DNA of 64,000 bases, from sequence record NZ_CP118990.1, one strand, 5' to 3'. The notes under the pieces are model-generated. The model worked only from the letters and a program-made list of their open reading frames with translations, was not told the origin of the DNA and did no database searches. How positions within the stretch are numbered: position 1 is the stretch's first letter; each line of letters starts with the position of its first letter. The DNA is from a plasmid. Positions 3,951 through 37,021 of the stretch are shown piece after piece. Made by a program: the position numbers and the translations under genes.

Positions 3951-3958
3951 TCCATTAA

Positions 3959-4866: not shown

Positions 4867-4872
4867 TGAAGG

Positions 4873-5014: not shown

Positions 5015-5047
5015 CCCCTGCGGGTACATCATCCCGCTCGGGATCGG
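5015..5047 (+). promoter_or_regulatory. Conserved upstream hairpin motif copy 3 (GCGGG-tacatcatc-CCGC)
   Basis: Same GGGTACATCAT loop as the copy at 3385. Confidence 0.45.
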
Positions 5048-5076
5048 TGTACCCACCACAAAATGGAGTACACCTT

Positions 5077-5457
5077 ATGAACAAAGTTATTTTGGACCCT
5101 ACCCACATCCGTCAACAAGCTATCGATGATGAGCTGCTGGTGGACCATTCAGCGTTAGCTGAAAAAGCTGGTTTCCTAACTGGTGTGGCCGTCACTAAGG
5201 CGGTCTACCTCGGTGTTATCGGACTCAGCAGTAAAAACGTAGACGACCATCAGCTTCTGTTTTTGCAAGTCTGTTCAGCACAAACAAAGGTTGCGCTCAC
5301 CGACTACAAGCAGTGGCAGCGGATACGCTTTTACTACCCCATACCAACTTCTGACGGATTTTTCATTCCGAAGGAAGTGGTCATTAAATGCGATGTTAAT
5401 CACTCATTCGTCACGATCATGTTGGCCTCGGAAGAGGGCACTCAACTGTTTCTGTGA
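5077..5457 (+). CDS. hypothetical protein (about 126 aa)
   Basis: GGAG RBS before ATG 5077. Confidence 0.4.
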   Translation: MNKVILDPTHIRQQAIDDELLVDHSALAEKAGFLTGVAVTKAVYLGVIGLSSKNVDDHQLLFLQVCSAQTKVALTDYKQWQRIRFYYPIPTSDGFFIPKEVVIKCDVNHSFVTIMLASEEGTQLFL

Positions 5458-5467
5458 TGATCCTAAT

Positions 5468-5530
5468 CGGCCTCCCTTCGGGGGCTGATTTTTAAACCCC
5501 TGCCGGGGAGAGCTCCCCGGTTGGGGTGCC
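5468..5530 (+). terminator. Tandem hairpins / terminator region containing a TTTTTAAACCCC motif
   Basis: CCTCCCttcgGGGG and CCGGGGagagctCCCCGG hairpins. The TTTTTAAACCC motif recurs at 7585. Confidence 0.4.
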
Positions 5531-5629
5531 TCCTTGGCGTATCTGCCCGGTGTCGGGGTTTCCTTAAACCCCTTGCAACGGGGGGATTAAGGAAGCCTCG
5601 ATGCCGGGGTTATCGCTAAGGAGAAACCT

Positions 5630-7321: not shown

Positions 7322-7586
7322 TGCTGCGAAAGTTAACACTACGCCTGGCAATGACGCTGTGTGCCCCTTCTCACCCCCTTTGGGGTGGGAAGGTGACTCG
7401 GCGGCCTATATGGTATTGATGCGTTCTCGGTACACCGACTTGATGCACGGGCAGCGAATGTTGTTCATCAGCTCCTTCTCCAGAAGAGGGAACCTGGTGG
7501 AGATAGTCGGACCCTATGCAGAAGAGGCAACCAGGATCATTGAAGCCATGCACAACAAGCCAAAGGCCCTCAAGGCCTCGGCTTAA
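7308..7586 (+). CDS. hypothetical protein
   Basis: AGGAGA RBS before ATG 7308 (the internal Met of the ORF-track ORF starting at 7263). Confidence 0.35.
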   Translation: MAVLNAAKVNTTPGNDAVCPFSPPLGWEGDSAAYMVLMRSRYTDLMHGQRMLFISSFSRRGNLVEIVGPYAEEATRIIEAMHNKPKALKASA

Positions 7587-7651
7587 TTTTTAAACCCTTA
7601 GGGGGGCAAAGACCCCTGAGGGGGTCATGCGCCCTCCAATTTTTGGAGAGA

Positions 7652-7903
7652 ATGATGAAGAAGTTTTTGCGCATGAAAATGTGGTGGGTGCTGTTATTGG
7701 CCCCTGGCAAGAAGACACTAATGGCTATCGGCGACGACCTGCGTAAGGTCGGGGTCAACGCTCTGAGTGTCGGCATTGTCGGCGTGGTTGTCACTGGTGA
7801 TACAATAACCGGTGACGAAGCCTTGCTCGTACTGCTGGGTGGGGTTATCCTTTGGTTAACAGGGGTAATCCTGACCGGTATGGGCAATAGGGAGGATGAA
7901 TGA
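7652..7903 (+). CDS. small membrane protein (2 TM)
   Basis: Hydrophobic segments; GGAG RBS. Confidence 0.35.
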   Translation: MMKKFLRMKMWWVLLLAPGKKTLMAIGDDLRKVGVNALSVGIVGVVVTGDTITGDEALLVLLGGVILWLTGVILTGMGNREDE

Positions 7904-8019
7904 GCAGCATCGCCATCTTGGTCGGTCTGTTTGGATTCTTAATATTGTTTGCGATTGGAAGTGCATACCTTTTCCATGAGCGCGAAAAGCAAAAAAAGCA
8001 TCCTCACGGCCATCCGTGA
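7900..8019 (+). CDS. possible 39-aa hydrophobic peptide (MSSIAILVGLFGFLILFAIGSAYLFHEREKQKKHPHGHP)
   Basis: ATGA overlap with the previous gene; a terminator follows. Too short for the ORF track. Confidence 0.2.
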   Translation: MSSIAILVGLFGFLILFAIGSAYLFHEREKQKKHPHGHP

Positions 8020-8030
8020 ATCACGATGAT

Positions 8031-8066
8031 AAAAAGGGGTCAGCATAAGCTGACCCCTTTTTTTAT
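8031..8066 (+). terminator. Rho-independent terminator
   Basis: GGGGTCAGCataaGCTGACCCC followed by T7. Confidence 0.65.
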
Positions 8067-8155
8067 GCTCCAAATCCTGGGGGAAGGCACCAGCCCATGG
8101 TTACCCTTCATGAACACCTGATGGGATTTGTTTGGTCTCAGCGAACTAATCTTGG

Positions 8156-8185
8156 TGTGGGATGAAAATATTTTCATCCCACACT
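8156..8185. repeat. Perfect palindrome GTGTGGGATGAAAATATTTTCATCCCACAC
   Basis: Read directly. The same GGATGAAA..TTTCATCC palindrome family occurs three times in 14283-14608. Confidence 0.6.
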
Positions 8186-8354
8186 TGGGATTAAACTAGG
8201 TAGACATATTTGACTGGTAAGCAAGCCGGGGTTAAAGTGGACATATATGACAGTGCTAATCCGTAAGAAGTATCAAGGAACGGCAATGTATTGCCCTGCA
8301 TGAGTTGTTGTCCGCTTCCATACTTCGGCGATGCGGCTCCCGAGCTTGGAGATG

Positions 8355-8644
8355 AAATGGCCGCCGATGTGATAGCTGCTTTAAAGCGTATATCTTCAAG
8401 TAGTCAGGCAGATAAAGGGGTAATCATGACAGTAGAGCAGCTTTTGAAGATGGCCCCAGATGCCGCGATGGCTTGGGTGCAGGAGAACCGTGCAACATTT
8501 GAGCTCGTGCCTTTAACCCCTTCTGATGAAATGATCAAAGCCGCAGCGGGGCCCGATTATAGCCAAGAAGATCGTGAGTTGGTTACTCGGGAATGGGTAG
8601 ACATGATCGAGACGCACCGCCACGGCTATTCCATCGTGGCCTAA
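8355..8644 (+). CDS. hypothetical protein
   Basis: ORF with a GGAG-ATG at 8355. The ORF-track start is 8291. Confidence 0.3.
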
Positions 8645-8659
8645 ATCAGAGGGAAAGCT

Positions 8660-8887
8660 ATGAAATTGGTACGCATCACTCTCCCTGGTTACATGCTGAA
8701 AGGCGAAGCTGAATGCCTGCACTGTGATTACGTGAAGCCATACAGTATGAATCGTGAGGGAATGGCTCGTGGAACAGCGCTTGATAAGGCCCGTGCGGCT
8801 GTAGCGGCCCTCTGCTGCCCGTCATGCGGTACGAGCGATGATGGTTGTATAGCCGTACTGAGCCCCGGCCAGACCGGCGATAAGTAA
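8660..8887 (+). CDS. hypothetical Cys-containing small protein
   Basis: ORF with an RBS (GAGGGAAAGCT). Confidence 0.3.
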   Translation: MKLVRITLPGYMLKGEAECLHCDYVKPYSMNREGMARGTALDKARAAVAALCCPSCGTSDDGCIAVLSPGQTGDK

Positions 8888-8900
8888 GAGGATAAACGGC

Positions 8901-9149
8901 ATGGAACACACAGAAGGCCCTTGGGTCGTCAACGAAAAGCATCCTGCTCGTAGCAGCGACGCTGAGGTTATCATCGAGCAGAAGGGGGGCAGTGCCCCTA
9001 TCGCGATCTGCCCACCTATTTATGGTGGCCAGCAGAAAGCTAACGCCCGGCGCATCGTGGTCTGTCAGAAAATCTGCCGAGGTTACTCGACTGATGAACT
9101 CGAACAGAGAGGGCTCGTTGCCCTCGTCGGCGACGAGCTGCTGAAATAG
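8901..9149 (+). CDS. hypothetical protein
   Basis: ORF with an RBS (AGAGGATAAACGGC). Confidence 0.3.
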   Translation: MEHTEGPWVVNEKHPARSSDAEVIIEQKGGSAPIAICPPIYGGQQKANARRIVVCQKICRGYSTDELEQRGLVALVGDELLK

Positions 9150-9299
9150 GATGGACTGCTCAAGAGCATCAGGGAGCGAATCCGCGACTGGACTTCGATG
9201 ACCCCAGCCGACATGAAAGCCGCTCTGTCCGACATTGAGGACGAGATCTCCGCAGCCGAACTGCTGTGAGCGCGATAAGAGTTAAGGGAAAGACAGACC

Positions 9300-9620
9300 A
9301 TGGAAATGACTTTTACAGCCCTGATAGCCCTTGGCGTGAGCTGGTCAGCCGGTGCCGTTCTTGAGGTGTCATCGCATGACGCGGATGTGCGGAAGATGGT
9401 TCTTGATGATATAGCCGAGGACGGCGACAAGGAATTTATTGATGCTCTCGGCGCTGGTCTGCCAAAGTCGGGCCTTATCAAGGTTCATGCCGAACTGGTC
9501 GGCTGGCCGAGCGAGTATGAGGCGGGCGAGTACAGGCTAATCAGCGCCACGACAGTATTGGCTCCTGAGCTGGCTAATGTCATGGCGGCTGATGTGATCG
9601 CCGCAGCAAGCAACTGCTAG
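9300..9620 (+). CDS. hypothetical protein
   Basis: ORF with an RBS (GGGAAAG). Confidence 0.3.
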   Translation: MEMTFTALIALGVSWSAGAVLEVSSHDADVRKMVLDDIAEDGDKEFIDALGAGLPKSGLIKVHAELVGWPSEYEAGEYRLISATTVLAPELANVMAADVIAAASNC

Positions 9621-9790
9621 GGTGTTCATGCTCCGTCATGCGGCTAGCCGGTTGCTGGATCTGGAGTCAACTGAACTGACAGAGGGGGCCGATGGCCGCC
9701 CCGATCCGGTGAAGCTCAAAGAGGCCCAGGCAGTCGCCAAACGCCTTGAAGCGATGGCCGATAGGCTGGAATCCAAGGGATAGAGGAACA

Positions 9791-10087
9791 ATGGGAACAC
9801 TGATTTTTTACTCTAATGACCCCGCGATATTGCCACGGGTTTCCTCGAACGCCCGCGGGGCGGAGAGTTGGAGCGGACTTAGAGTTGATCAGCTTTCCGA
9901 AGAGCAAATAGAGCAGCTCTTTCGATACTGCCGCACGGAAGGATACCGGCAGGGGTGGAATGACGCTGTTGGTCGGCGCATGGGTGACAGCAGGAAGGGG
10001 CCATTCCATCCAGAACTACTGGGTGGGAAACCCAGTAAGTTGTGGCAGGAAAGCTATGACGATGGAACGGAGGAGAGGGGCGCATAG
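9791..10087 (+). CDS. hypothetical protein
   Basis: ORF; internal ATG with an AGAGGAA RBS. Confidence 0.3.
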   Translation: MGTLIFYSNDPAILPRVSSNARGAESWSGLRVDQLSEEQIEQLFRYCRTEGYRQGWNDAVGRRMGDSRKGPFHPELLGGKPSKLWQESYDDGTEERGA

Positions 10088-10191
10088 CCAATTCCCCACA
10101 GGCTCTCCATCCACATGCTGGCTGGGATGAACTGTGAATATATTCGCGTTCCTTTGGAAGATAATTATGACGAGAGGTAAGCCAGACACCT

Positions 10192-10554
10192 ATGACTAGC
10201 ACTAGCAAAGCTAACGGACCATTCCACCAGATCATTCGGGGGAAAGGTTGGACGCTGGTTGAGGTCGGCCTGCGCTGGGGGATTAAAGAACGGCAGATGA
10301 GCCGCATCGCAAACTCGGCAAAGCAAAGAGACCTTGATGCCGCCAACGGTCTACCGTTGAATGACAAAAATGCCTCAAAGATGGTGGGCGAGCCCATGCA
10401 CCAGCACATCCGGGGTAAAGGCTGGACGTTGACCGAGGTAGGAGAACGATGGGGCGTCGCTAAACGGCAAATGAGCCGCATCGTGAAGGCGGGCAAGCCA
10501 AAAGATCTTGATGCCGCAACCGGCTTGCCTCACCAAGACAAGTCAGCCAAGTGA
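10192..10554 (+). CDS. hypothetical protein made of two tandem about 55-aa repeats (possible HTH DNA-binding)
   Basis: IRGKGWTLVEVGLRWGIKERQMSRIANSAKQRDLDAANGLP is repeated as IRGKGWTLTEVGERWGVAKRQMSRIVKAGKPKDLDAATGLP. Confidence 0.4.
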   Translation: MTSTSKANGPFHQIIRGKGWTLVEVGLRWGIKERQMSRIANSAKQRDLDAANGLPLNDKNASKMVGEPMHQHIRGKGWTLTEVGERWGVAKRQMSRIVKAGKPKDLDAATGLPHQDKSAK

Positions 10555-10741
10555 TGGTCTCTAGGAGGTGTGGTGCGGGCATAGCCCATGCAGCCCCAGC
10601 CGAACCGGCTGGGGCTGGGTTTTATTGCGTTTTGCATATGCAGTTGCATTTTGAGATGCAGTGGTACCATTGAATAAAACATTAAGGGGGATTTGACGGT
10701 GAGACCGATCAACACCCTACAACACTAACGAGGTAAGTATC

Positions 10742-11467
10742 ATGATGACATTGACCACTGTCGCCAAAAAGACATCCAACAACTCAGCCCTGGTATTCTG
10801 GCGCGTAGGTACGAAACGCAAGGGCATTCTGGACGTTCGCACGGACTTCGAGCATGAGGAATCTGACCTCCTCGCAGAGTTGATCGCGATTCGACACCTG
10901 GCATTGGATAAGCAGGTATTCTGCCGGGAGCCAGGCGCCGGAGCTGGTTACAAGCTGGTGGTTTCGAAAGGTGCGATCAAGAAACTAGCGTTGGGGAAAT
11001 CAAGTAAGGCATTCGCCGCTAAGTTTGCATCCTTCCTGACTGGCAGGATGCAGGGGGCCACTATTGAAGTGGCCCAAGGCATGGATTACATGGATGAGCC
11101 CGGTGAGAGTAACATCGAACTCCTTGATGTGGACAAGCAGGCATTCACTCAAACCTATGATGAGATCAATACACCTGCTATTGGCCCAGTGCTTGTAACT
11201 CAACATGCCCTCAGCCAATATCAAGCTAGGATCACATCTGGTGACCCCAAGAAACCTTGGGCTTCGCTTGTCGGCCGCCTCAAGCACCCGGAGCTACAGT
11301 TGCAACCATTCGATGAGAGGGTGGCCCGCCACAAAGCAATGAGGTATGGCCGCGTGGATAACGTGGAAGTCTGGGGGCACCGGGATTCTAAATTCAAATA
11401 TCTGATGGTCATCAATGACGATAATAAGAAGCGGGTATTGGTAACTGTATTTGAACGAAAGGAATAG
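10742..11467 (+). CDS. hypothetical protein (241 aa); its last 26 codons lie in direct repeat 1
   Basis: Clean ORF. The C-terminus YLMVINDDNKKRVLVTVFERKE looks like a RelE/ParE terminal strand, but the call is uncertain. Confidence 0.4.
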   Translation: MMTLTTVAKKTSNNSALVFWRVGTKRKGILDVRTDFEHEESDLLAELIAIRHLALDKQVFCREPGAGAGYKLVVSKGAIKKLALGKSSKAFAAKFASFLTGRMQGATIEVAQGMDYMDEPGESNIELLDVDKQAFTQTYDEINTPAIGPVLVTQHALSQYQARITSGDPKKPWASLVGRLKHPELQLQPFDERVARHKAMRYGRVDNVEVWGHRDSKFKYLMVINDDNKKRVLVTVFERKE

Positions 11468-11552
11468 TTGAGTAATTTGTCATATAGATCTTATTCTGCA
11501 AGGTGTAAAAAATCGGTGCCGACTAGGCAGTTATCGGACAGATCGCCTTGAA
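11389..11552. repeat. Direct repeat copy 1 (164 bp, identical to 14609-14772)
   Basis: Perfect 164-bp match read in the sequence. Confidence 0.9.
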
Positions 11553-13823: not shown

Positions 13824-14153
13824 TTGGCTCTGTGGTTGAAGGTGTTACCGTTGGCTCGGGTGAATTATTTGGTAAGGGGTTTTAATATGATGTGGATTGT
13901 TACGGCCATGTACTTTGTTGTTGTATCAGGTCTTTTATTAGTAGGGTTCGTTGTTTATGGGAAAACTCTATTTTTCCTGGGTAGGTCCGGTGCCTTTGCT
14001 AAATATGTGGGGGGGGGGGTATTGTTTACGTGTTGTTTGCGTGTGTATTGGTTGCACCGTTATTTATTGCTCCCGTGTTTATCAATGGGTGGCGTGAAGC
14101 TTTTAATTCTAATGTGGTTTATGCAGTTTATTTTATGGTGCTTTTTGTTTTAG
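13824..14153 (+). CDS. small polytopic membrane protein, candidate immunity protein for the Rhs tip
   Basis: Immediately downstream of the Rhs CT; 3 hydrophobic helices. Confidence 0.35.
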   Translation: MALWLKVLPLARVNYLVRGFNMMWIVTAMYFVVVSGLLLVGFVVYGKTLFFLGRSGAFAKYVGGGVLFTCCLRVYWLHRYLLLPCLSMGGVKLLILMWFMQFILWCFLF

Positions 14154-15253: not shown

Positions 15254-15496
15254 TCACACACACCTCTTGACTTGTTAATTTGTTTGTATAAGCGACCATC
15301 ACCGGGTCGATAATAAATCACGATCCTTGTACTAGACTTGTATAAGCAAAGATTGTACCAGTAGTACGGATTTCGAGTTAGGTTGCACAGTAAACTACCC
15401 GACAGACTATGACTGATAAAATTAAACTGCATCAGATTTTAGTCTATTCGATTGTAGACTGCTGAAAAGAGGATTAGCTCAAAGTGCGGGGGGAAC

Positions 15497-15543
15497 TTAA
15501 ATGGCTCATTGCGCTGAGTGTTTCTACACAATGAGCCATTTAA
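15497..15543. promoter_or_regulatory. 15-bp perfect inverted repeat TTAAATGGCTCATTG...CAATGAGCCATTTAA with a 17-nt loop, downstream of csf2
   Basis: Read directly. It is preceded by GCGGGGGGAACTTAAATGG, which resembles the CRISPR repeat 3' part. Confidence 0.4.
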
Positions 15544-15644
15544 TTGACCCTCTACAAGGGGAGGGAGTGACTGTTGGGGCTTTGAAGAGGCACCTAAGAC
15601 AATAGGCGTAAACCGCCAACTATTGGGCGGAAGCGACACGTCTG

Positions 15645-16676
15645 TCAGGCGTCTTTCTTTACCTTGTGGAAGGAGCTGGTGACGTCGTTGCGCCAAGCGT
15701 CATAGGCTAGGTGCAGCACTTCTCCCTCAACCCGGAACCCTTCACCATCAAATTCGATCTTACCAATAGTCACTGGGCTCAGTGCCTTCGGCGGCCAAGT
15801 CTTCACATCCCAAGAGCCGGATACCAAACCGCAGTTATGAGCTTGGTGTCCGCCCATGCGGGGGGAACGAGCGAATTCTAACAAAGCAGCAATGAAAAAG
15901 CCCAGTTCGATCTGACTGACTGACTTGAGGGACATGCGGTGCTCCATCACTGTACCGGCGCAGATCGCCTCGTATTGGTCGATGGGGCGACGTATAGACT
16001 CCCGAGCCTCCCCCTTCTGATCTTTGCGATCTTGGATTTGTGCGTCCAATGCCGCGAGCTGGTCAAACAACACCCTTTTCTCGTCGTTCGGAGCCGTTTT
16101 CAACTGTTTTTTCAGCTCTTTTTGCTTGTCCTTCAATACTCCGACGTCGGCGGAGGCAAGGGTCTGCTCTTCCAAAATGGTTTGGAGCCGGTTTCTTTCC
16201 GACTGATCCAGTGTTTCGAGGAGCTCCGGGGAGCGTTCAAACATGATGGTGCGAGCACCACCACCAAACATGGCCGTTGCATTGGCCGTGATGGGGAAGC
16301 CGTTCCCTATGTTAGCTTTTGATGGAAGCCCCCATATGCCGAAGAGACTCAGCATCGGGTTGCCTTCGCGCAAGTGTCGATCAGAGTTCACCTCGTCGTC
16401 GGCAGGGGCAGAAATATCTCCCACAATGTCTACCCCTTGGGCCAACATGAAATGCTCTGCCAGGTCAAATGGTGGGCGTTGATTGTCTTCATTGAACATC
16501 AACACAACCCGGTGCGCAGCATGGCGCAATGAACCACGGGTAGTCGTTGCAGGCCAATAAGCTGGGGCATCGAACCCGCCATTACGTGGCAGGCGGCCCT
16601 GGGTGTTTTTTATGGTGACGGTCAAGGGCTCAACTGCGGTCAGGTGGCCGTCGAAAACAAAGGTACTTTGAGTCAT
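15645..16676 (-). CDS. csf2: Type IV-A Cas7 (Csf2)
   Basis: 343 aa. Last gene of the dinG-containing cas operon. Gly-rich FGGGARTI loop; size and position fit Csf2. Confidence 0.6.
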   Translation of the reverse strand: MTQSTFVFDGHLTAVEPLTVTIKNTQGRLPRNGGFDAPAYWPATTTRGSLRHAAHRVVLMFNEDNQRPPFDLAEHFMLAQGVDIVGDISAPADDEVNSDRHLREGNPMLSLFGIWGLPSKANIGNGFPITANATAMFGGGARTIMFERSPELLETLDQSERNRLQTILEEQTLASADVGVLKDKQKELKKQLKTAPNDEKRVLFDQLAALDAQIQDRKDQKGEARESIRRPIDQYEAICAGTVMEHRMSLKSVSQIELGFFIAALLEFARSPRMGGHQAHNCGLVSGSWDVKTWPPKALSPVTIGKIEFDGEGFRVEGEVLHLAYDAWRNDVTSSFHKVKKDA

Positions 16677-16694
16677 GGAAATTCCTTGTTGATG

Positions 16695-17393
16695 TTAAAT
16701 CAGCTGGTGAAGCATTTCAGAACGGACCCTTTGGGGGGCGACAATGGGCATTTTTTCTTTTGAGTAATACGGAGGGAGCAGTGGCGATAGGCCTGGTACC
16801 CCATCGATCCCGGATGATACCGGGAGTGGTCGATTAGCCTTATCCAACAGGATAAGGCTGGCATCTTCCTGCATGGGGGTGATGATCAGATTATCAAAGG
16901 CTCCCATCTGGCAGTTCTGAGCGTCGTAACCTAAGCCCAGAACGAAAAAATCCAGCAACCCCTTTATCAGGTAGGGATTCCCCAATCCATCGAACACTGC
17001 AAAAGGGGCTTGGTAAGCGGGCATCTCCCGCAAGCGTCGTTTGGTCGGTCCTCCCTTGAGCTTGATCTTCACATAGCGTCCTTTGCCGTTGGGGGCAAAC
17101 ATCGCCGGAGATAGTTTCTCGGGAGTATGCCGATCTGCTCTGACGTAGCTGCCGACAGTCAAGCCAACGGCCATCGTGACACCGAATCTCATTGCCGAGG
17201 CATGGAAGACACCAAGTTGGTCGTTATAGAGAAGGTAGTTGCTCATTTCCTGCAAGAGTTCTTCCCTGCTGGCAAGTGGGGAGCGCTGGCTCAGAGCCTC
17301 AAAAACCAAAGCATCAAGAGTTGGGGGGTAGTCAGTTAATACCACCGGGGTCTTTAACGACATGACCAGGCGAAAGGGTTCAAATTCGAACAT
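16695..17393 (-). CDS. csf3: Type IV-A Cas5 (Csf3)
   Basis: 232 aa. Stop/start overlap with dinG; size and position fit Csf3. Confidence 0.55.
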   Translation of the reverse strand: MFEFEPFRLVMSLKTPVVLTDYPPTLDALVFEALSQRSPLASREELLQEMSNYLLYNDQLGVFHASAMRFGVTMAVGLTVGSYVRADRHTPEKLSPAMFAPNGKGRYVKIKLKGGPTKRRLREMPAYQAPFAVFDGLGNPYLIKGLLDFFVLGLGYDAQNCQMGAFDNLIITPMQEDASLILLDKANRPLPVSSGIDGVPGLSPLLPPYYSKEKMPIVAPQRVRSEMLHQLI

Positions 17394-19342
17394 CAGAAGT
17401 AAACCTCCAATGGAGTTGCAGGTGATTGCTCGCCGTCAGTTAACAGCCCTTTGGCCTGCCGGTACTGTTGCAGAAACCGAACGGGAATGATGTTTCGCAG
17501 GATGGCGTGTTTGGACGACAAATCGTGAGACAGTGGGAAACGGGGATCGAGAATATCGACTTCAATGCAATCGTCAGGTGAACGGATCCCGCGGCCAATG
17601 GCTTGTCGCATCAACCGAATAACGGCGTTTTGAGTACGCATATACTCCTGCTTGTAGAGCTGTTTACTCAGGTCAGTCTTCTTGGTCTTCTTGTAGAAAC
17701 TTACCAACGCTTCGACTTCGGAAGTGCGTGGTTGGCCGTAGGCAATTCGAGTGATCATCAGGCGATCGAATCCAACTGAGCCAGCGTCATCGGTGATATT
17801 GAGCCCGGTATGGCCCGCAGCGGTGATCATTACTCCCCGGCCATGATGTCTGCATACCTTCTTGAACTCTTCAATCAATGATTTGAGTGGGGTGCCACGC
17901 TGGTGGACCAGCACCTGCCGATGCTCAATTTGAGCCAAAACTGCGGCCAATTTACGGCTCTCTTCATGTGAAGCTGTCAGCACAACCACCCGTCCGCATC
18001 GGTTGGTGATCTGATGTGCGACTGCTTGCAACCATTTTTCAGAAAGGGCAGGGGCATTCCCCTCAGAGGACGGTCTTGAGTAGATAGCCGGGAACGAGGG
18101 GCCCGCCAGAGTCAGGGTCATGCTCCCATATTTTTTCGGGGAGAAAAGGGCAATGGCGCCGAGCATGGTGTCATCAATACCAAGTTCCATTCGCAACGAA
18201 GTGGTACCATTCACTGGCTCAGGCGTGATACTCAGTGTGCCGGAGGTGAGGAGAACAGACTCAAAAGCTGAGGTCGCGTATTTCCCGAAGAACCGAACAA
18301 ACCACGGGGAGAGTGAGACGATGGCCGGTTCCCGGCGTATCAGTGAAACGCCGATCCCCATGGACGAGGTTTGCATCATCAGGAGCTGCTGCTGCAAAGA
18401 TGTTGAGACATCCTTATCCAGGTTATTCAACCGGCAAATCTTCTCGATCTTTCCAATGGTGGCCCGCGCCAGTTCCGCCAGCTCGGTATCCCAGGCATAT
18501 TGCTGCATCCCCAGCCGCTCTTGGATTGTCTTAATTGAATTAGCAAGAGGGGCTAATTGCCGAGCTGATAGTTGCTCGCCCAACTGGGAGGCGACACGAA
18601 CAAGATTCAGGCGCCGCTGAGTCCATTCTTGCAACCGATTCACCAGGGCATCAGCTTCATCAACAATCAGCACTGTCGGCCGTGACTTATCGGCCAAAAG
18701 CGCATTATTTCGCAGCATGTCTACTGCGATCATGGCATGAGTTGTGACCACGATGTCGCATTTAGATTCAGCCTGTTGCTGTTCGTCAAATGCCTCATTT
18801 TCACACTCAGCCGTCAGGCAAATTTGAGAGGCCAACAAGTCGCAGGGGAGTCCGCCAAACTCATCCTCAAATTCTGCAATCGTCCCTGACCAGTCACGCA
18901 AAGTAGCCACTTCGCGCTCCTCTAGGGCTGACAGAGAGCGGTTGGTGAGGGCAATATTGATCCGCTTTGGCGATACGAAATTGACCCGTCCGAGAAGACG
19001 GCCGATAGACAACGGTCTATGTCCATAATGACGGGCGACTTTGGTCAGCAGCACACTGTCTTTTTCGAGAAGTTGTTGCATCAGTGCGTGGCTGTGTGTT
19101 GCGACGATAACCCGAGGGCGACGTGGGTCGCAGAGTGCAAACTGCATGGCTGGCAAGAGATAGCCCAGCGACTTTCCGAGGCCGGTGTCAGCGTGAAGAA
19201 GCGATATTTTCCCGGTGTCAGCCAGCACTTGCTCAATCATTAGCGCATATTGGGTCTGCTCATCCCGAGCGATGAGGCCGCCAGCGGCCATCAGCTCTCC
19301 GAACTTGGCTGTGTGGATCCCGTCCTCTGGCAAGGGGCTCAT
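17393..19342 (-). CDS. dinG: CRISPR-associated DinG-family helicase (Csf4)
   Basis: Walker A HADTGLGKSLGYLLPA and DEAD box VLIVDEADALV, typical of Rad3/XPD/DinG SF2 helicases. 649 aa. Confidence 0.8.
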   Translation of the reverse strand: MSPLPEDGIHTAKFGELMAAGGLIARDEQTQYALMIEQVLADTGKISLLHADTGLGKSLGYLLPAMQFALCDPRRPRVIVATHSHALMQQLLEKDSVLLTKVARHYGHRPLSIGRLLGRVNFVSPKRINIALTNRSLSALEEREVATLRDWSGTIAEFEDEFGGLPCDLLASQICLTAECENEAFDEQQQAESKCDIVVTTHAMIAVDMLRNNALLADKSRPTVLIVDEADALVNRLQEWTQRRLNLVRVASQLGEQLSARQLAPLANSIKTIQERLGMQQYAWDTELAELARATIGKIEKICRLNNLDKDVSTSLQQQLLMMQTSSMGIGVSLIRREPAIVSLSPWFVRFFGKYATSAFESVLLTSGTLSITPEPVNGTTSLRMELGIDDTMLGAIALFSPKKYGSMTLTLAGPSFPAIYSRPSSEGNAPALSEKWLQAVAHQITNRCGRVVVLTASHEESRKLAAVLAQIEHRQVLVHQRGTPLKSLIEEFKKVCRHHGRGVMITAAGHTGLNITDDAGSVGFDRLMITRIAYGQPRTSEVEALVSFYKKTKKTDLSKQLYKQEYMRTQNAVIRLMRQAIGRGIRSPDDCIEVDILDPRFPLSHDLSSKHAILRNIIPVRFLQQYRQAKGLLTDGEQSPATPLEVYF

Positions 19343-19911
19343 AACACCTCCAGGTTCGACAACTGGCCGTAGCCAAATACCCGCTTACGGCCAATGCCAT
19401 AAACAACAGCCTGCTCGGCCAGCGCAACATCCTTGATCTCAGCAACGACACTGACCGGGTTGCACTGGAGGGTGAAGCTCTGTTTTTTCTTGAGGTAGCG
19501 CTCCAGGTAGGGGCTGTTGGCTGAGTGGCTCTGGAGCGAGAGTCCTGCCCCTTCGCACTGCCTGGCTAGAACATCAGGCAAGATGGCCATCGGCAGATTC
19601 ATCGACCGTTTTTTGGTGGTGCCTGGGATCGGATGCTTGATTGGGAAGCAGAAGTTGAGGTTGAACATGACTGCATCTGCCACGTTCAGTTCAAGTTGTA
19701 CGGCTTGTTCGCCAGCTAGGCCAAGTTGCGTTGCCGATCGCAAGTAGATAACGGTTGTGTTGGGCTCATGAGGGTGAGCAATCCGCCGCCAGCTATAGGG
19801 GACTTTACAGCGCAATGTCTCCTGTACCAAATAATCAAGACGCTGGTGGACCAGATACGGAAGAGACGGGTCAGTTTCACGCAGTTTGAGGGTGTTTTCA
19901 TAGTAAATCAT
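19339..19911 (-). CDS. cas6: Cas6 endoribonuclease (Csf5 / Cas6e-like)
   Basis: 190 aa. C-terminal Gly-rich loop GIGRKRVFGYGQL (GxGxxxxxGxG signature of Cas6). Overlaps dinG and csf1. Confidence 0.65.
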   Translation of the reverse strand: MIYYENTLKLRETDPSLPYLVHQRLDYLVQETLRCKVPYSWRRIAHPHEPNTTVIYLRSATQLGLAGEQAVQLELNVADAVMFNLNFCFPIKHPIPGTTKKRSMNLPMAILPDVLARQCEGAGLSLQSHSANSPYLERYLKKKQSFTLQCNPVSVVAEIKDVALAEQAVVYGIGRKRVFGYGQLSNLEVL

Positions 19912-20744
19912 TGGAGCTTGTCCGCGATGTGAATCAGCTTGAGGCGCTGGTGGGGGTCCGCCGGTAAAGTGCGAAATATCGTGCCGAACGATGGTTTTTT
20001 GCTGATCTGTTCACTGGCCTGCTGGGGGGTAATGCGTCCGTTCGAGAGGCCAACGACTAACTTATTGAAGGCGTTGCGTTCCTGACTTGTTAGTGTGTTG
20101 AGCCCCCCTGATAGCCGCATGGCCGCATCCAGATTAACCGTGCATTCGACTCGGGTAACTGAATCCATACCGGCGTCACTACAGCAGTAGAGCGCCTGCG
20201 GTGACAGAGATATGGTCAACCCTCGCATAAGCGCCGCGGTTTTACGTCCGAAAGATTCGATGTATAGCAGAGGGAATTTTGCATTCTCTGCGATCCATGG
20301 CAGGTGACCACCAACGGTAATCTTCACCACATCGACGTGCTCTAAAAATGATGCAGGGAACTTGTCATACACCCCTGGTGGGGCTAGGAGCGTTGAACGC
20401 TGAGGCTTACCTGGGACATCTGCAATTTCGTGCACCCAACCGACACCACTCATCATTCCAAAGCGCTGGCCCACCTTCTTGTCGCTTTTCCCGGCAGTTC
20501 GCTCATTACCCATGATGTTGGGGTCGGTCACAAACATGGCCTGGCAAGGAGCACAGTGGTTGAACGGCGTTTTATAGCTATCCAGACCTTGATAACCCAC
20601 ACGGTCAAACGAGCTTGCAGGGCGCTTGCAGCAAGAACATGCCGCACCAGTCTTTACAGCTTCTCCCAAGGCTGGAGCCAAAATATGGGTGAGGTTGGCA
20701 TAAAGAAGATCAATTGGATGTTGCACGTCACCTCCGAGAAACAT
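19908..20744 (-). CDS. csf1: Type IV-A Cas8-like large subunit (Csf1) with a zinc finger
   Basis: 278 aa. First gene of the operon. CSCCKRP...HCAPC treble-clef-like Cys cluster. Confidence 0.55.
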   Translation of the reverse strand: MFLGGDVQHPIDLLYANLTHILAPALGEAVKTGAACSCCKRPASSFDRVGYQGLDSYKTPFNHCAPCQAMFVTDPNIMGNERTAGKSDKKVGQRFGMMSGVGWVHEIADVPGKPQRSTLLAPPGVYDKFPASFLEHVDVVKITVGGHLPWIAENAKFPLLYIESFGRKTAALMRGLTISLSPQALYCCSDAGMDSVTRVECTVNLDAAMRLSGGLNTLTSQERNAFNKLVVGLSNGRITPQQASEQISKKPSFGTIFRTLPADPHQRLKLIHIADKLQ

Positions 20745-20864
20745 TCTGAAACAGTTTCACATAAGATAATAGATTTCTTTTTTTTGTAAAGAGGCAGGTC
20801 CTTGATAATCGACCGTTTTTAGTGGCCTGGTAGAAACGGGTGCTGTATAAGCTAAAACCTCGGT

Positions 20865-20891
20865 ATGCCGCCCTTTGGCGGGGGTTAGCGG
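20865..20891 (+). repeat. Degenerate CRISPR-repeat-like sequence A (TGCCGCCCTTTGGCGGGGGTTAGCGG) in the cas promoter region
   Basis: Shares the hairpin plus GGGGGTTAACGG 3' part with the array repeats at 23890-24584; same orientation. Confidence 0.5.
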
Positions 20892-20936
20892 TTTGAGCCA
20901 GCGCAAAAACAAGCCAGAGCAGAGCCATGCTGGAGT

Positions 20937-20963
20937 GCCTCCCAGTGGCGGGGGTTAACAGAT
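20937..20963 (+). repeat. Degenerate CRISPR-repeat-like sequence B (GTGCCTCCCAGTGGCGGGGGTTAACAG)
   Basis: As for A. The two are separated by a 45-nt spacer-like segment. Confidence 0.45.
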
Positions 20964-21088
20964 GAATGGCAACCTCTGGGGTTGAACGGAGGTAAAGCTC
21001 CGGGGGCCATAGCCCCTATGTTGGGAGCGCCATGTTCAGTGACATTTTACCAACGGAACAAAGTTCTGGTGTTATTTCAGGGGGAAGT

Positions 21089-21751
21089 ATGAAGGGTAAT
21101 ATAATTTCATGGAAAGATGAAAAAGGCTTCGGCTTTATAAAAAATGATGAGAATGGCGAACATATATTTTTTCATATATCGAGCGTTATAAAAGGGACGA
21201 GGCAGCCTATTGTTGGTGATGCAGTTACATTTGATGTAGGGGTTGATTCCAGCAACCGAAAAAAAGCAAAAGATATTTTTATTGAAGGGGTGTCATTTAC
21301 CAATATCCCAAGGCGAGTATTTACGGAAAAGGTTAAGCGCGACCGTTTCGATTATTATTGTTACGTCGCGATAGTGTTATCAGTGGCAATAACACTCGCT
21401 GTGTATATTAAAATGGGGCAGCCTCGACTGGCATTATTTCCCGCCGCCGTTGCTATAATGCTGTTTTTGTATATCTCCGTCCGTACTAAAAAACCTGCAA
21501 ATGACATATTCTCATGCGGGAAATGCTCATCAGTGGTTAGACATGACGCAAGAACCATTCGGGCATGGAATAAGGGTGCGTGTAAATTATATTGCAGAAC
21601 CTGCAATCAGAACTGGCATCGTGAAAAGCCACAAAGGGATAGCACTAAAAAATATAATCGCCCTCAGAAGTCTGGATGTCTAGGGGTATTATTATTTATA
21701 ACATTCGTGCCGGTATTTTTAATTTCAAGCATCATCACCTTACTGGTGTAG
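21089..21751 (+). CDS. Cold-shock-domain protein fused to a 2-TM membrane domain and a C-terminal Cys4 zinc ribbon (CSD-DUF1294-like)
   Basis: GNIISWKDEKGFGFIKNDENGEHIFFHISSV is a CspA-type S1-like domain. Two hydrophobic helices follow. CGKCSSV...CKLYCRTC Cys cluster. Confidence 0.6.
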   Translation: MKGNIISWKDEKGFGFIKNDENGEHIFFHISSVIKGTRQPIVGDAVTFDVGVDSSNRKKAKDIFIEGVSFTNIPRRVFTEKVKRDRFDYYCYVAIVLSVAITLAVYIKMGQPRLALFPAAVAIMLFLYISVRTKKPANDIFSCGKCSSVVRHDARTIRAWNKGACKLYCRTCNQNWHREKPQRDSTKKYNRPQKSGCLGVLLFITFVPVFLISSIITLLV

Positions 21752-21786
21752 AAAGAAATGTTGAAGCCTTGTTGCCTGGACTATTA

Positions 21787-21822
21787 ACTGAATGAGCCTC
21801 ATCATAATCATGGGTGAGGCTT
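21787..21822 (+). terminator. Rho-independent terminator
   Basis: GCCTCAtcataatcatggGTGAGGC followed by T6. Confidence 0.65.
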
Positions 21823-21907
21823 TTTTAATGGCCCGATAAAGGGCGAAAAGTGTCGCTCTCAAATTGCCACGCACTGACCGCGTTTCCCAAGTCGATGACA
21901 CTGAATA

Positions 21908-22017
21908 GTGTACAAACTTTATTATGCAAGTGACTGATCTGTAGTGTCCGTTGTGTACAAACTTTACTGTCCGAGTCACCGCTACGCCGTGTTTGCTGCG
22001 TACAAACTTCATTGTCA
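21908..22017. promoter_or_regulatory. Three iteron-like direct repeats GTGTACAAACTTTAYTRTC spaced 46 and 44 bp apart
   Basis: Copies at 21908-21927, 21954-21973 and 21998-22017. Followed by an inverted repeat at 22099-22132 and an AT-rich stretch before the phosphatase gene. Confidence 0.55.
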
Positions 22018-22098
22018 CTGTACTGCTTGCGCAGCCTAACGGCGCCTGCGGCCACAGTACAGACAACCCCGCATTGCGTACTTCTCCATGCCCTCCTT

Positions 22099-22132
22099 CA
22101 CACACAGAGGCTCAAGCGTGTCTCTGTGTGTC
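22099..22132. promoter_or_regulatory. Inverted repeat CACACACAGAG-N12-CTCTGTGTGTC
   Basis: Read directly; upstream of the phosphatase-recombinase operon. Confidence 0.45.
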
Positions 22133-22222: not shown

Positions 22223-22753
22223 ATGAGAGAGGTGCACTTCATTAGCCAGGTCGAGGCCGAAAAACTGGCGCCGGTTGCCGGTGCGGCGATGATCTCGATC
22301 ACCGACCCGGACAAACCGGAGGCGGCCCTGGGAGATTGGCAACTCTTGTATCGGGACAGCTTTTACGATGGTGGCTACAGTGAGGACACCATCCGTACCA
22401 TGAAAGGGTCTTTTCGGATGAGCTACGCATCCTACATTGACTCCCATCAGGCGAAGAACCTATCCAACTACATCGATGAGCTGGTGCAGAGCGGCATCAG
22501 CCAGATCTTTGTTCACTGCTACTACGGGGAATCCCGAAGTGGCGCGATTGCTTTGTATCTGTGCAACAAACATGGATTCACCTCGAACAAGCCCATCACC
22601 AAGCCTAACAGGACGGTCTACGATCTCCTCTGCTCCCCTTTGAAATATGAAGCACTGATACAGAGTTACGAAACACAAGATGCTGCGCCTACCGAGAGTA
22701 TCTACACCAAGATATGGGATTTATTGCTCGTGGCTATCGGTGTTAGGAGGTAA
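22223..22753 (+). CDS. Cys-based phosphatase (CX5R P-loop; dual-specificity / PTP-like), 176 aa
   Basis: VHCYYGESRSG matches the HCxxGxxRS/T active-site signature. Confidence 0.6.
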   Translation: MREVHFISQVEAEKLAPVAGAAMISITDPDKPEAALGDWQLLYRDSFYDGGYSEDTIRTMKGSFRMSYASYIDSHQAKNLSNYIDELVQSGISQIFVHCYYGESRSGAIALYLCNKHGFTSNKPITKPNRTVYDLLCSPLKYEALIQSYETQDAAPTESIYTKIWDLLLVAIGVRR

Positions 22754-22755
22754 CT

Positions 22756-23760
22756 TTGCACCAACGGAACAACCGCGACACCACTGAACTTTCACACGCG
22801 AAAGTCATTGTCTTGCCAGAACAAACCTCAGGTGGAGGCCTCCCGCAAGTCACCGGGGGGCTCAGAAGCGCACAAGATAATCCGGCAGTTGCATACCTGA
22901 TCAGCCTTGGCTCCAGGCGCAGTCGGCAAACCATGGGCTCATTTCTCAGCATTGTTGCTCGGATGATCGGGTACCAAAACCTGCGTGATTGCGCGTGGGA
23001 GTCGATGCGGCGGCATCATGTCCAAGCTGTGATCCAAATGCTCAGTGACTCTGACCGAGCGCCAGCTACGATCAATACCTACCTGGCAGCGCTGAAAGGA
23101 GTTGCCCTGGAAGCGTGGACAATGAAGCTGATTGATACCGACAGTTACCAGCATATCAAGCAGGTGCGTTCGGTGAGAGGCTCTCGTTTACCCAACGGGC
23201 GGGCCCTCGAAAAGCACGAGGTCAGAGCCCTTTATTTCACATGTGAAAACGATCGGAGCTCCAAAGGGCTGCGTGACGCAGCCATCCTTGCTGTTTTAGT
23301 CGGGTGCGGACTTCGGCGCTCAGAGGTTGTCGCCCTCGATATGGAATGTGTCATCACCAGGGATCAGGCACTTCGTGTGCTCGGTAAGGGCAATAAAGAA
23401 CGCATCGCCTATGTGCCTGACGGGGCATGGCAGCGGCTTATGCGGTGGGTGGAGGAGGTTCGTGGTGATCAGCCGGGATCGCTGTTTCAGCGGATCAGGC
23501 GGTTTGATGATGTCACCGCCGACAGAATGACTGACCAGGCTATCTATCACATTCTTGAAACGAGAAGGATTGAGGCGGGGCTGGAAAAATTCGCTCCTCA
23601 TGATCTCCGCAGAACCTTTGCATCGGCCATGCTGGATAATGGCGAGGACATCATCACGGTCAAGGATGCGATGGGCCATGCCAGTGTCACGACCACGCAG
23701 AAGTATGATCGTCGGGGAGATGAGCGATTGAAACAGGCCAGTCGGCGACTCGATTTTTGA
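22756..23760 (+). CDS. Tyrosine site-specific recombinase (phage integrase / XerCD family)
   Basis: C-terminal HDLRRTFASAMLDNGEDIITVKDAMGHASVTTTQKYDRR carries the catalytic R...HxxR...Y region. Start is 3 nt after the phosphatase stop. Confidence 0.8.
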   Translation: MHQRNNRDTTELSHAKVIVLPEQTSGGGLPQVTGGLRSAQDNPAVAYLISLGSRRSRQTMGSFLSIVARMIGYQNLRDCAWESMRRHHVQAVIQMLSDSDRAPATINTYLAALKGVALEAWTMKLIDTDSYQHIKQVRSVRGSRLPNGRALEKHEVRALYFTCENDRSSKGLRDAAILAVLVGCGLRRSEVVALDMECVITRDQALRVLGKGNKERIAYVPDGAWQRLMRWVEEVRGDQPGSLFQRIRRFDDVTADRMTDQAIYHILETRRIEAGLEKFAPHDLRRTFASAMLDNGEDIITVKDAMGHASVTTTQKYDRRGDERLKQASRRLDF

Positions 23761-23862
23761 GTCGGAAGACCAATGTTAATCAGTTGCGCACTCAGAATTT
23801 AAGAGGTAAATTTCAGCCACCAATCCTCAAGTGTGCGAACATCGCTGAACGTGACCTAATCT

Positions 23863-23886
23863 TGATGGTAATTGTTGACTTGGTAA
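23863..23886 (+). promoter_or_regulatory. Candidate sigma70 promoter in the CRISPR leader (TTGATG-17-AAGTAT)
   Basis: Hexamers read directly. The leader 23761-23889 is AT-richer than its surroundings. Confidence 0.35.
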
Positions 23887-23889
23887 GTA

Positions 23890-24584
23890 TCGCCCCCCCG
23901 CAGGTGGGGGTTAACGGGCGTGTAAAGCGTCCAACGTGACTTACAGAAAATCGCCCCCCCGCAGGTGGGGGTTAACGGAGTGGATGCATTTGCTGACTTC
24001 CACCGATGAATCGTCCCCCGTGCCTGGGGGTTAACGGTACTCGGCCTGGCACAACATGGACCTCACCCGATTTCTCCCCCGCAGCTGGGGGTTAACGCCG
24101 CGAGGGGAGCTGTTGCTATAGCGGGAATGAATCCCCCACCGCAGGCGGGGGTTAACGGCGTCAGCACATCACACAGCTATTGAGCACCAGATCGATCCCC
24201 CGCAGGCGGGGGTTAACGGTTTTCGATGATGTCGGTGGCGTTTGCCATCATATCGCCCCCCGCAGGCGGGGGTTAACGGACGCTGATAACGCATATCGAC
24301 GACGGATTTGAATCACCCCCCCGCAGGCGGGGGTTAACGGCCCGCGGGATAGAGAAGTGGTGCCATCAGCGCATCTCTCCCCCGAGCCTGGGGGTTAACG
24401 GTGCCCTTTTTGTGCACAAACAAAAAAATCAAAATCCATCCCCCTGTTACGGGGGTTAACGAAGCGGGACGTCGTGGTGCTGTGCTGCGGCTGCATCTCC
24501 CCCCAGCAGGCGGGGGTTAACGTTAGCTTCACACCAGGCCTTGATAGCATCGCCGATCTATCCCTCGCGACTGGGGGTTATCGG
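23890..24584 (+). CRISPR. CRISPR array: 12 repeats of about 28 nt (consensus about TCGCCCCCCGCAGGCGGGGGTTAACGG) and 11 spacers of 32-37 nt. The degenerate terminal repeat is at the 3' end.
   Basis: Period about 61 bp. Spacers are unique. The conserved GGGGGTTAACGG 3' handle and C5-7/G5 stem resemble type I-E/IV-A repeat architecture. The last repeat is TCCCTCGCGACTGGGGGTTATCGG. Confidence 0.85.
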
Positions 24585-34305: not shown

Positions 34306-34357
34306 TGCCGGCATGAGGCAACGTAGCGACAGCGTGGTTTGTCTCAATGGGAAGCGC

Positions 34358-34594
34358 TCATGATCGACCTCTGAAGGCCCGCAGCAGCCGCGTCACAGAC
34401 AGGACAAACAAGCCGGTCAGCGTGAGGGCTGCAATACCCCAGTGCTCGCCGATGAACGCGCCGGCCGTCGTGCCGGCCAGCACAATGGCGAGAATCGGCA
34501 AATGACAGGGACAGGTGAGCACCGCCAGCGCACCCCACAGGTAGCCGGTGAACGGCTTGTGTGTCTCGGTCGGCAAGCGCTCGGGGCTGTTCAT
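34358..34594 (-). CDS. merE: MerE
   Basis: 78 aa with [14 protein letters not shown], characteristic of MerE. Confidence 0.85.
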
Positions 34595-34956
34595 GGCAGA
34601 CTCTCCGCTTGCTGGGCCGGCGCGGTCGGCATCGCGGCCAACTGCACTTCCAGATCGGCCAACGCTTCGCGTCGGCGTTCGACGAACTGACTCAGCACGG
34701 CAAGCTGTGCGGCTGTTTCATCGCAGTCCGCCGCATCCAGCGCCCGGCACAACCGCGCCAATGCGTCCAGGCCGATGCCCGCCTCAAAAGCGGCCCGCAC
34801 AAAGCACAGCCGCTGCAAGGCGGCGTCATCGAACAAGCCGTAGCCGCCCGTGGTGCAGGCGACTGGCCGCAGCAATCCGCGCAGCAGGTAGTCGCGCACG
34901 ATATGCACGCTCACCCCGGCCTCAAGGGCCAGTCGGGACACTGTGTAGGCGTTCAT
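34591..34956 (-). CDS. merD: MerD co-regulator
   Basis: MerR-like [32 protein letters not shown]; 121 aa. Confidence 0.85.
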
Positions 34957-34973
34957 CGAACACCTCCTTTTCC

Positions 34974-36722
<1,749 letters not shown>

Positions 36723-36730
36723 TCAGTGCC

Positions 36731-37006: not shown

Positions 37007-37021
37007 GATGAACTCCTGTGA

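Follow-up and report, generated by a model that had tools for sequence, protein, structure and literature searches.

A degenerate two-repeat element upstream of csf1 in a plasmid-borne type IV-A3 locus: probable remnant of a small second CRISPR array

Upstream of the cas operon of a type IV-A3 CRISPR locus carried by a plasmid, two degenerate repeats flank a single spacer-like segment. Based on comparison with a related locus that has a better preserved array at the same site, this element is probably the decayed and rearranged remnant of a small second IV-A3 CRISPR array, without present function. Degenerate mini-arrays beside cas genes form a known class, some members of which have proved to be regulators. 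Since none was reported for type IV in the literature searched, whether the present element might be one was a question worth asking.

The source DNA is an Aeromonas-type conjugative resistance plasmid (sequence record NZ_CP118990.1), and "the window" hereafter designates the whole stretch of 64,000 nucleotides that was analysed. Its cas genes follow an order identical to that of the Klebsiella and A. media IV-A3 loci, which, with the PADLOC and NCBIfam matches, places the operon in this subtype. The window Csf1 shares 64% identity with its counterpart in Aeromonas media pAeme3 and 41% with the one encoded by Klebsiella IncHI1B plasmids, and the identical Csf1 protein is recorded also in Klebsiella, Enterobacter and Salmonella. 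The locus comprises the following features, apart from the element itself:

15645 to 20726, minus strand: type IV-A3 cas operon, csf1-cas6-dinG-csf3-csf2 (PADLOC, NCBIfam, gene order)
20726 to 19908, minus strand: csf1 (PADLOC Csf1_2_IVA3, 8.9e-66)
19911 to 19339, minus strand: cas6 (PADLOC Cas6_0_IVA3, 1.5e-23)
19342 to 17393, minus strand: dinG/csf4 (NCBIfam csf4, below the curated cut-off, best or near-best match)
17393 to 16695, minus strand: csf3 (NCBIfam csf3, below the curated cut-off, best or near-best match)
16676 to 15645, minus strand: csf2 (NCBIfam csf2, below the curated cut-off, best or near-best match)
20763 to 20790, minus strand: predicted csf1 promoter (-35 TTTACA at 20790-20785, 16 nt, -10 TATCTT ending at 20763)
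21089 to 21751, plus strand: CSD cargo gene, directly 3' of the mini-array, for a membrane-anchored cold-shock-domain protein
22223 to 23760, plus strand: phosphatase-like gene and Xer-like recombinase
23761 to 23888, plus strand: leader of the main array
23889 to 24584, plus strand: main CRISPR array of 12 repeats, co-oriented with the mini-array and the source family of its repeats

The main array is built of units of 60-61 nt, each with a 28-29-nt repeat and a 32-nt spacer. Its spacer 6 shares 30 of 32 positions with traA of Aeromonas plasmids, with a 5'-AAG PAM in this single protospacer. The two repeat-like sequences, TGCCGCCCTTTGGCGGGGGTTAGCGG (20866-20891) and GTGCCTCCCAGTGGCGGGGGTTAACAG (20935-20961), were first described from the sequence alone and proved to be real, both lying on the plus strand in the same orientation as the main array. 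With full-length repeats, the element and its surroundings read as follows, L009 being the related lineage to which they were compared:

20798 to 20862, no strand: left flank, common only to L009 (76% identical), with the conserved box GGTATAAGCTA
20863 to 20891, plus strand: PsiR1, first degenerate repeat, GTATGCCGCCCTTTGGCGGGGGTTAGCGG (11.4 bits, E 0.58)
20892 to 20932, plus strand: psiS, spacer-like segment of 41 nt, a mosaic of two L009 spacers
20933 to 20961, plus strand: PsiR2, second degenerate repeat, GAGTGCCTCCCAGTGGCGGGGGTTAACAG (12.3 bits, E 0.3)
20974 to 20989, plus strand: possible 3' half of a third repeat, much more degraded, CTCTGGGGTTGAACGG (weak identification)

These scores come from a covariance model made from the 21 distinct repeats of the main array, on which PsiR1 and PsiR2 are the top non-array matches in the 64-kb window. 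Genuine repeats score 29.6-45.2 bits, that is, 17-33 bits above the two degenerate copies. Each match taken alone would be marginal; the pair, placed 70 nt apart on the array strand, is not. A simpler count points the same way: with at most one mismatch, the 11-mer GGCGGGGGTTA occurs nine times in the window, always on the plus strand (seven times in the main array, twice in the mini-array), against 0.79 in shuffled sequences. The element therefore has what defines direct repeats, at least two copies of one repeat family in one orientation, though the copies are strongly degenerate. No match to it was found in Rfam. A 66-aa ORF called across the element was discarded, as it is not conserved and a T-run indel breaks it in L034.

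Degeneration is reflected in the predicted folds. In PsiR1, a G-G mismatch breaks the canonical C5/G5 stem, and the lowest-energy hairpin is predicted to be shifted by 3 nt (CCGCC/GGCGG), leaving a tail of 10 nt after the stem in place of the normal 7 nt. PsiR2 is predicted to fold in the canonical register, its stem including one G-U pair, and this hairpin should be usable as such. The common 3' part initially attributed to both repeats holds only approximately, since PsiR1 ends in TTAGCGG and PsiR2 in TTAACAG, each with one mismatch to TTAACGG. The handle position altered in PsiR1 also varies among working systems, being TTATCGG in Klebsiella. Another repeat-like sequence proposed 3' of csf2, GCGGGGGGAACTTAAATGG (15486-15504), had to be rejected: TTAAATGG forms one half of a terminator palindrome that is conserved, and neither L005 nor L009 keeps the G-run.

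The preliminary description had located the element in the promoter region of the cas operon. It does lie in the divergent intergenic region, but at 75-170 bp upstream of the -35 box; with the predicted promoter at 20790-20763, the repeats are thus upstream of the csf1 core promoter and do not overlap it. Translation of csf1 most likely starts at GTG 20726, which is preceded by a GGAGG Shine-Dalgarno sequence, rather than at ATG 20744. L005-L008 hardly vary in the promoter block, and L009 agrees with the window there at 62 of 70 aligned bases (89%).

The origin of the element was traced through its relatives. Only three close lineages were detected among 5.8 billion proteins, and everything that protein look-ups returned belonged to the window lineage (as near-identical copies), to L009 or to the A. 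veronii type. The latter (L005, L007 and L008; Csf1 88% identical) carries the recombinase module and the main array, and lacks the CSD gene as well as the mini-array. L006, which has the same Csf1 as the L005 type, displays another upstream region, also devoid of the mini-array. Followed from csf1, the homology of L005 and L006 to the window ends just past the -35 box, at 20794-20797, and resumes at 22132 in L005. In L009, by contrast, Csf1 is 87% identical and the CSD protein only 56% identical, and a mini-array of 4-5 repeats and three spacers occupies the same site in the same orientation, directed away from csf1. Its units of 62-63 nt are near-canonical, and its repeats score 29.0, 21.5, 11.9 and 11.3 bits on the repeat model, with intact C5/G5 stems around very different loops. 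Over its whole length, the L009 spacer S2 agrees with traK of A. media plasmids at 28 of 32 positions, and AAA takes the place of the expected AAG PAM. Together with the traA match of spacer 6 in the window main array, this indicates ordinary plasmid-targeting arrays. The left flank of the mini-array is common to the window and L009.

Beyond these lineages, nothing comparable was found upstream of csf1 in Klebsiella, K. grimontii or A. media-type loci. A scan of genome contigs for relatives returned only Klebsiella grimontii, a metagenome scan three distant loci, all without the mini-array, and a pattern scan of viral contigs two matches, at chance level. The search for the same element in related IV-A loci, suggested at the outset, thus succeeded for L009 and failed for L005-L008, the A. 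media-type loci and Klebsiella IV-A3: of the four arrangements seen upstream of csf1 in the close clade, two include the mini-array, and every more distant IV-A3 locus examined lacks it. In both lineages that have it (the window lineage and L009), it co-occurs with the CSD gene. This gene encodes a protein with a cold-shock domain, 2 TM helices, a CxxC..CxxC motif and a C-terminal TM segment. The idea that it is a CRISPR-linked gene was abandoned, as homologues with 35-40% identity occur in ordinary chromosomal, non-CRISPR contexts.

The spacer-like segment carries the clearest trace of rearrangement. Its length, first given as 45 nt, is 41 nt with 29-nt repeats and 43 nt with the repeat boundaries used earlier, so that the mini-array unit amounts to 70 nt with a 41-nt spacer and departs from the canonical unit length. 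Nucleotides 1-28 of psiS resemble the 5' part of L009 spacer S3 (23 of 28, with one indel), and its last 17 nt resemble the 3' end of S2, the traK spacer (13 of 17, in register with the next repeat; simulated P of about 5e-5 per spacer). This double correspondence identifies psiS as a fusion of parts of two spacers rather than an acquired spacer. The repeats on either side tell a similar tale: PsiR1 has a loop like that of L009 R1 and a 3' end like that of R3, and PsiR2 with the preceding 10 nt is closest to the L009 S2(3')-R3 junction (30 of 37). A simpler derivation of psiS from S3 by a 9-nt insertion was set aside, the 3' end of S2 accounting better for the extra length. A resemblance between the sequence 3' of PsiR2 and the start of S2 was not significant (P 0.06).

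These observations argue for the remnant of a small array in which recombination between repeats, plus an illegitimate join or a duplication, would have collapsed the original units, leaving in the window lineage two repeat copies and one 41-nt spacer-like piece. With no recognisable leader, such an element would be incapable of new spacer uptake, and its scrambled 41-nt guide and mis-registered 5' hairpin would make a normal crRNA unlikely; any transcript would more likely be a mere upstream leader of the CSD gene. The mini-array would have been gained or lost together with the CSD gene in a variable cargo slot lying between the csf1 promoter and the phosphatase/recombinase/array module.

An array remnant had been among the first suggestions, and in this general form it agrees with the homologous L009 array at the same site and with the clear signs of decay. 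Its original version, in which the phosphatase/recombinase module would have separated the leader-proximal part of the main array from the cas genes, finds no support. The main array has its own leader, which is conserved and belongs to that array itself. Its leader end differs between the window and the related A. caviae plasmid L001 and its trailer end is common to both, indicating turnover at the leader end. In addition, L005, L007 and L008 carry module and array without any mini-array, and the flank upstream of the mini-array is not homologous to the main-array leader: comparison of 20791-20870 with the main-array leaders of the window, L005, L001 and L009 revealed no homology, hence no recognisable leader. 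This flank does contain a conserved -10-like box, GGTATAAGCTA at 20844-20854, which is a possible -10 for rightward transcription; no sigma-70 promoter was predicted on the plus strand of the flank.

The comparison covers two independent lineages, and conservation was weighed against the remaining DNA of the locus. Between the window and L009, the cas genes are only 54-66% identical at four-fold degenerate sites (34-46% differ); identity is 76% in the flank of the mini-array and 82% over nucleotides 1-28 of psiS. Other non-coding segments are equally similar, namely the region downstream of csf2 (80%), the main-array leader (74%) and the region upstream of the phosphatase gene (80%). This non-coding baseline of 74-80% leaves no excess conservation of the mini-array. 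Constraint deduced from the excess over four-fold sites was consequently dismissed, all non-coding DNA of the locus being at the same level. The element has nonetheless been retained in two lineages at this four-fold divergence and thus has not been erased, a property that it shares with all the non-coding DNA around it.

The main alternative, which we consider unlikely, is a crRNA-like RNA of the CreR/CreA or cargo-regulating type, cut by Cas6 and loaded on the Csf complex, in which 10-28 nt of the 5' part of psiS would guide repression. Its target might be the cas operon, the CSD protein as a CreT-like toxin, or a plasmid or host gene outside the window. The position is that of CreR, with a psiR-psiS-psiR unit (20863-20961) that adjoins the effector operon upstream of its genes and lies directly upstream of a cargo gene with which it co-occurs in both mini-array lineages. 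Type IV-A represses transcription and is thereby suited to the role. In class 1 complexes, as seen in type I and IV structures, guide positions 6 and 12 are flipped out, and these are positions at which psiS and S3 differ. The 5' 28 nt of psiS are better kept than its divergent 3' part, and a conserved 5' and divergent 3' portion is also a feature of regulatory mini-arrays, according to Shmakov et al. 2023 (doi 10.1101/2023.03.03.530964). This pattern and the usable PsiR2 hairpin keep a regulator conceivable.

CreR/CreA and other regulatory mini-arrays are, however, defined by a spacer whose PAM-proximal part matches a cas or cargo promoter next to a PAM, and IV-A3 binding depends strongly on NAAG. 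Target scans were ungapped, with seed scans ignoring every sixth position, and were run with and without AAG; at the csf1 and CSD promoters none of them exceeded chance. The partial complementarity to the csf1 promoter that the preliminary description had suggested looking for was not recovered, as no AAG-flanked seed match of psiS was present at the csf1 or CSD promoter regions of either the window or L009. Between 20600 and 21800, the best AAG-flanked site was a 6/12 match to psiS, with the same outcome for the L009 spacers, and over the 64-kb window the best AAG-flanked score, 10/15, equalled that of shuffled spacers. Related loci and plasmid backbone (the latter being NZ_AP022242.1 except about 18 kb), which together amount to about 290 kb, likewise yielded no AAG-flanked psiS seed match and only results at chance level. 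On its own plasmid, the search covered 64 kb of probably roughly 200 kb, and no host chromosome. A PAM-flanked, PAM-proximal match of about 9 bp or more to a cas promoter, as in CreR, was therefore not found, nor was a toxin-promoter target of the CreTA kind in the interval from the mini-array to the CSD gene or within this gene, in the window or L009. The lone 12/13 match of psiS, located in csf3 (17295-17283), was taken as chance: it is flanked by GGC instead of AAG, fits L009 S3 less well, and is no less conserved in L005, a locus without the mini-array.

Other properties weigh against a regulator as well. Position 7 of the psiS seed differs between the window and L009 lineages, against the conservation of seed and target expected of CreR. 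At 41 nt, psiS exceeds the typical 23-27 nt of CreA/CreR spacers in I-F, and PsiR1, which would be needed for the 5' handle, is the repeat with the mis-registered hairpin. Conservation does not rise above the non-coding baseline, and homologues of the CSD gene are common chromosomal genes. The more specific proposal of a first type IV crRNA-like regulatory RNA, with 10-28 nt of the psiS 5' part directed at a site outside the searched DNA, or with silencing of CSD through a non-AAG motif in a protein-toxin version of CreTA, would be quite improbable.

A minimal immune array that still works, supplying a single guide for Csf/DinG interference with an unsequenced plasmid or phage, appears improbable too, more so than regulation in general. 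The intact C5/G5 stems of the L009 sister array, maintained despite differing loops, suggest selection for processing; that array also carries a traK-derived spacer, and PsiR2 is in the canonical fold register. Most CRISPR spacers have no match in databases. With psiS being a mosaic, however, no full-length match to either original protospacer would be possible, the PsiR1 hairpin is shifted, and both repeats score far below functional ones. Searches of plasmids (7.3 Gb), phages (2.3 Gb) and E. coli genomes (28 Gb) retrieved no credible protospacer for psiS at E values up to 10, and hence no match to a mobile element with the correct PAM, as expected of an array spacer. Matches of L009 S3 in a Salmonella IncHI2 plasmid and in Citrobacter phage Miller were discarded since they contain indels and lack AAG.

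Finally, it is very improbable that the hairpins serve the CSD gene, either in a long structured 5' leader that Cas6 might cut or bind and that would tune expression of the gene, or as terminators or insulators between the divergent csf1 and CSD units. The element does share the strand of the gene, precedes its start by 128 nt in the window and about 50 nt in L009, is gained and lost with it, lies downstream of a conserved -10-like box and includes in L009 two repeats scored as terminator-like, and long 5' leaders with a regulatory role are well known in cspA-type genes. On the other side, the 256-nt region folds no better than shuffled sequence (z = -1.3), the window repeats have no terminator T-runs, and the number and content of units differ between the window and L009.

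A decayed second array is thus the preferred reading, and it can be placed among known systems. The element shares with the IV-A3 arrays of plasmids, such as the Klebsiella IncHI1B/IncFIB plasmids and Aeromonas media pAeme3 with its two arrays, the same repeat family, with a C-rich stem, G5 and a TTA(A/T)CGG handle. An AAG PAM was found for the window main array and is reported for Klebsiella IV-A3, and spacers against conjugation genes occur in the window main array and the L009 mini-array as they do in plasmid IV-A3 systems. Two or more arrays per locus are also seen in the A. media-type L002 and L020, and decay of terminal repeats is a further likeness. In contrast to plasmid IV-A3 arrays, the window element has only two repeats, scoring 11-12 bits against at least 29.6, no recognisable leader and a 41-nt mosaic in place of a spacer. 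It also lies directly between the csf1 promoter and a cargo gene rather than downstream of csf2.

CreR and CreA, described for type I and V-A only within the literature searched, resemble the element in having two degenerate repeats around one spacer-like segment beside effector genes, and the neighbouring gene might by analogy be a toxin. Unlike them, the element has no PAM-flanked match to a cas or toxin promoter, which is their defining property, psiS is longer than a normal spacer instead of shorter, and the hairpin of the first repeat is more damaged. The intergenic mini-arrays treated by Shmakov et al. 2023 (doi 10.1101/2023.03.03.530964) come close in other respects: degraded repeats form a pair within an extended intergenic stretch of a cas locus, the site is a gene-shuffling hotspot whose cargo varies, and some relatives have the mini-array and others do not. 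The regulatory cases of that study have predicted targets, whereas none was found for psiS; in the text examined, type IV appears only in the discussion and references, and no type IV mini-arrays are reported. Solitary repeat units, or Racr, are likewise repeat-derived hairpins outside an array, but consist of near-identical repeat copies with an intact hairpin, carried by phages or rival elements, which soak up Cas proteins. PsiR1 and PsiR2 are degenerate, paired and in their own locus, with low scores and one shifted hairpin.

The outcome for the regulatory question is mostly negative, and usefully so: a repeat-spacer-repeat unit beside a cas promoter is insufficient to call a CreR-type switch. 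The present case documents the decay of a small IV-A3 array by repeat-repeat deletion and spacer fusion, in a cargo slot that is swapped among related broad-host-range resistance plasmids of Aeromonas and Enterobacterales. Were the element a regulator after all, crRNA-guided self-regulation would extend to a nuclease-free, plasmid-borne CRISPR type.

Variation around the element was also recorded within the window lineage, which includes 10 further near-identical copies with five variable intergenic sites. Three of the five affect C-rich stems of the pseudo-repeats; L031 has a C at position 20940, which gives PsiR2 a perfect C5 stem. Two of the five polymorphic sites, 20974 and 20977, are within the possible third repeat, CTCTGGGGTTGAACGG, which itself lies inside a hairpin-rich stretch of 83 nt (20962-21044) missing from L009.

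The stretch from the csf1 promoter to the phosphatase gene forms a cargo slot whose content differs by lineage, as seen in the window and in the related loci L005 (of A. veronii type), L006 (encoding the same Csf1 as L005) and L009 (carrying a homologous mini-array). The Xer-like recombinase adjoining this slot is a candidate participant and might be involved.

Content of the cargo slot by locus
Window, 20795-22131: mini-array and CSD gene
Window, 21089-21751: the CSD gene itself, whose product is a membrane-anchored cold-shock-domain (CSD) protein with a CSD, two TM helices, CxxC..CxxC and a C-terminal TM
L009, 7565-9915: mini-array, CSD gene and 276-aa gene
L005, 4949-7251: 213-aa and 276-aa genes
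L006, 1-1207: two small ORFs

The CSD of the cargo protein is matched by PADLOC CSD_V (7.7e-8) and by the retron Se72 effector model (6.5e-6), and those of its homologues that share 35-40% identity with it are ordinary chromosomal genes. The window and L009 versions of this protein share only 56% identity, compared with 85-91% for the cas proteins.

Within the mini-array region, positions 20940, 20974 and 20977 are polymorphic among window-lineage copies that are otherwise 99.9% identical. One such copy, L031, carries both T20940C, by which PsiR2, the second degenerate repeat, regains a perfect C5 stem, and T20977C, which falls within a possible third repeat remnant, while C20974T is present in five copies. 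The 66-aa ORF that spans the mini-array in public gene calls (window 20728-20928, minus strand), and that stops 1 nt before csf1, is probably spurious: it encodes a basic, low-complexity product, it is shortened by a T-run indel in L034, another window-lineage copy, and it is not conserved in L009. The spacer-like piece of the mini-array, psiS, matches a site within csf3 (window 17283-17295, minus strand) at 12 of 13 nucleotides, corresponding to psiS positions 1 and 3-13 (TCTGAGCCAGCGC). This site is flanked by GGC instead of AAG, and every close relative preserves it as coding sequence, whether or not a mini-array is present.

Repeats of the main array share an invariant C5/G5 stem and GGGGGTTAACG, and vary widely in their loop and 5' end (GCAGGT, GTGCCT, GAGCCT, TGTTAC, GCGACT and others), both in the window (23889-24584) and in L001 (13758-14773), the locus of the A. 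caviae plasmid NZ_AP022242.1. The trailer half of the main array is common to the window and this plasmid, in which an IS66-family element occupies the expected position of the cas operon; its array is therefore an orphan.

The third repeat-like element of the preliminary description, located downstream of csf2, turned out to belong to a conserved perfect palindrome (window 15486-15545; TTAAATGGCTCATTG ... CAATGAGCCATTTAA), which is most likely the terminator of the cas operon. In the A. media-type IV-A3 loci L002 and L020, a repeat-like sequence on the cas strand directly follows csf2 (14078-14108 and 11069-11099, respectively), with scores of 17.6 and 20 bits under the window repeat model and an orientation opposite to that of the neighbouring array. 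Immediately upstream of csf1, these loci have an ORF of ca. 100 aa together with two or three palindromes (TTCAAATCAnATTTGATTT; L002 8430-8861, L020 5433-5527). The arrangement resembles a protein repressor and its operators, which would control the same operon in a different way.

The identical Csf1 protein is on record from Aeromonas, Klebsiella quasipneumoniae, Enterobacter kobei, Salmonella and compost metagenomes, and the element is therefore a broad-host-range resistance plasmid. Over window positions 34349-49337 and 1-11550, its Tn3 / mercury / msr(E) resistance region shares 99.8% identity with several Aeromonas plasmids, and pAsa4-type plasmids show ca. 91% identity to the backbone.
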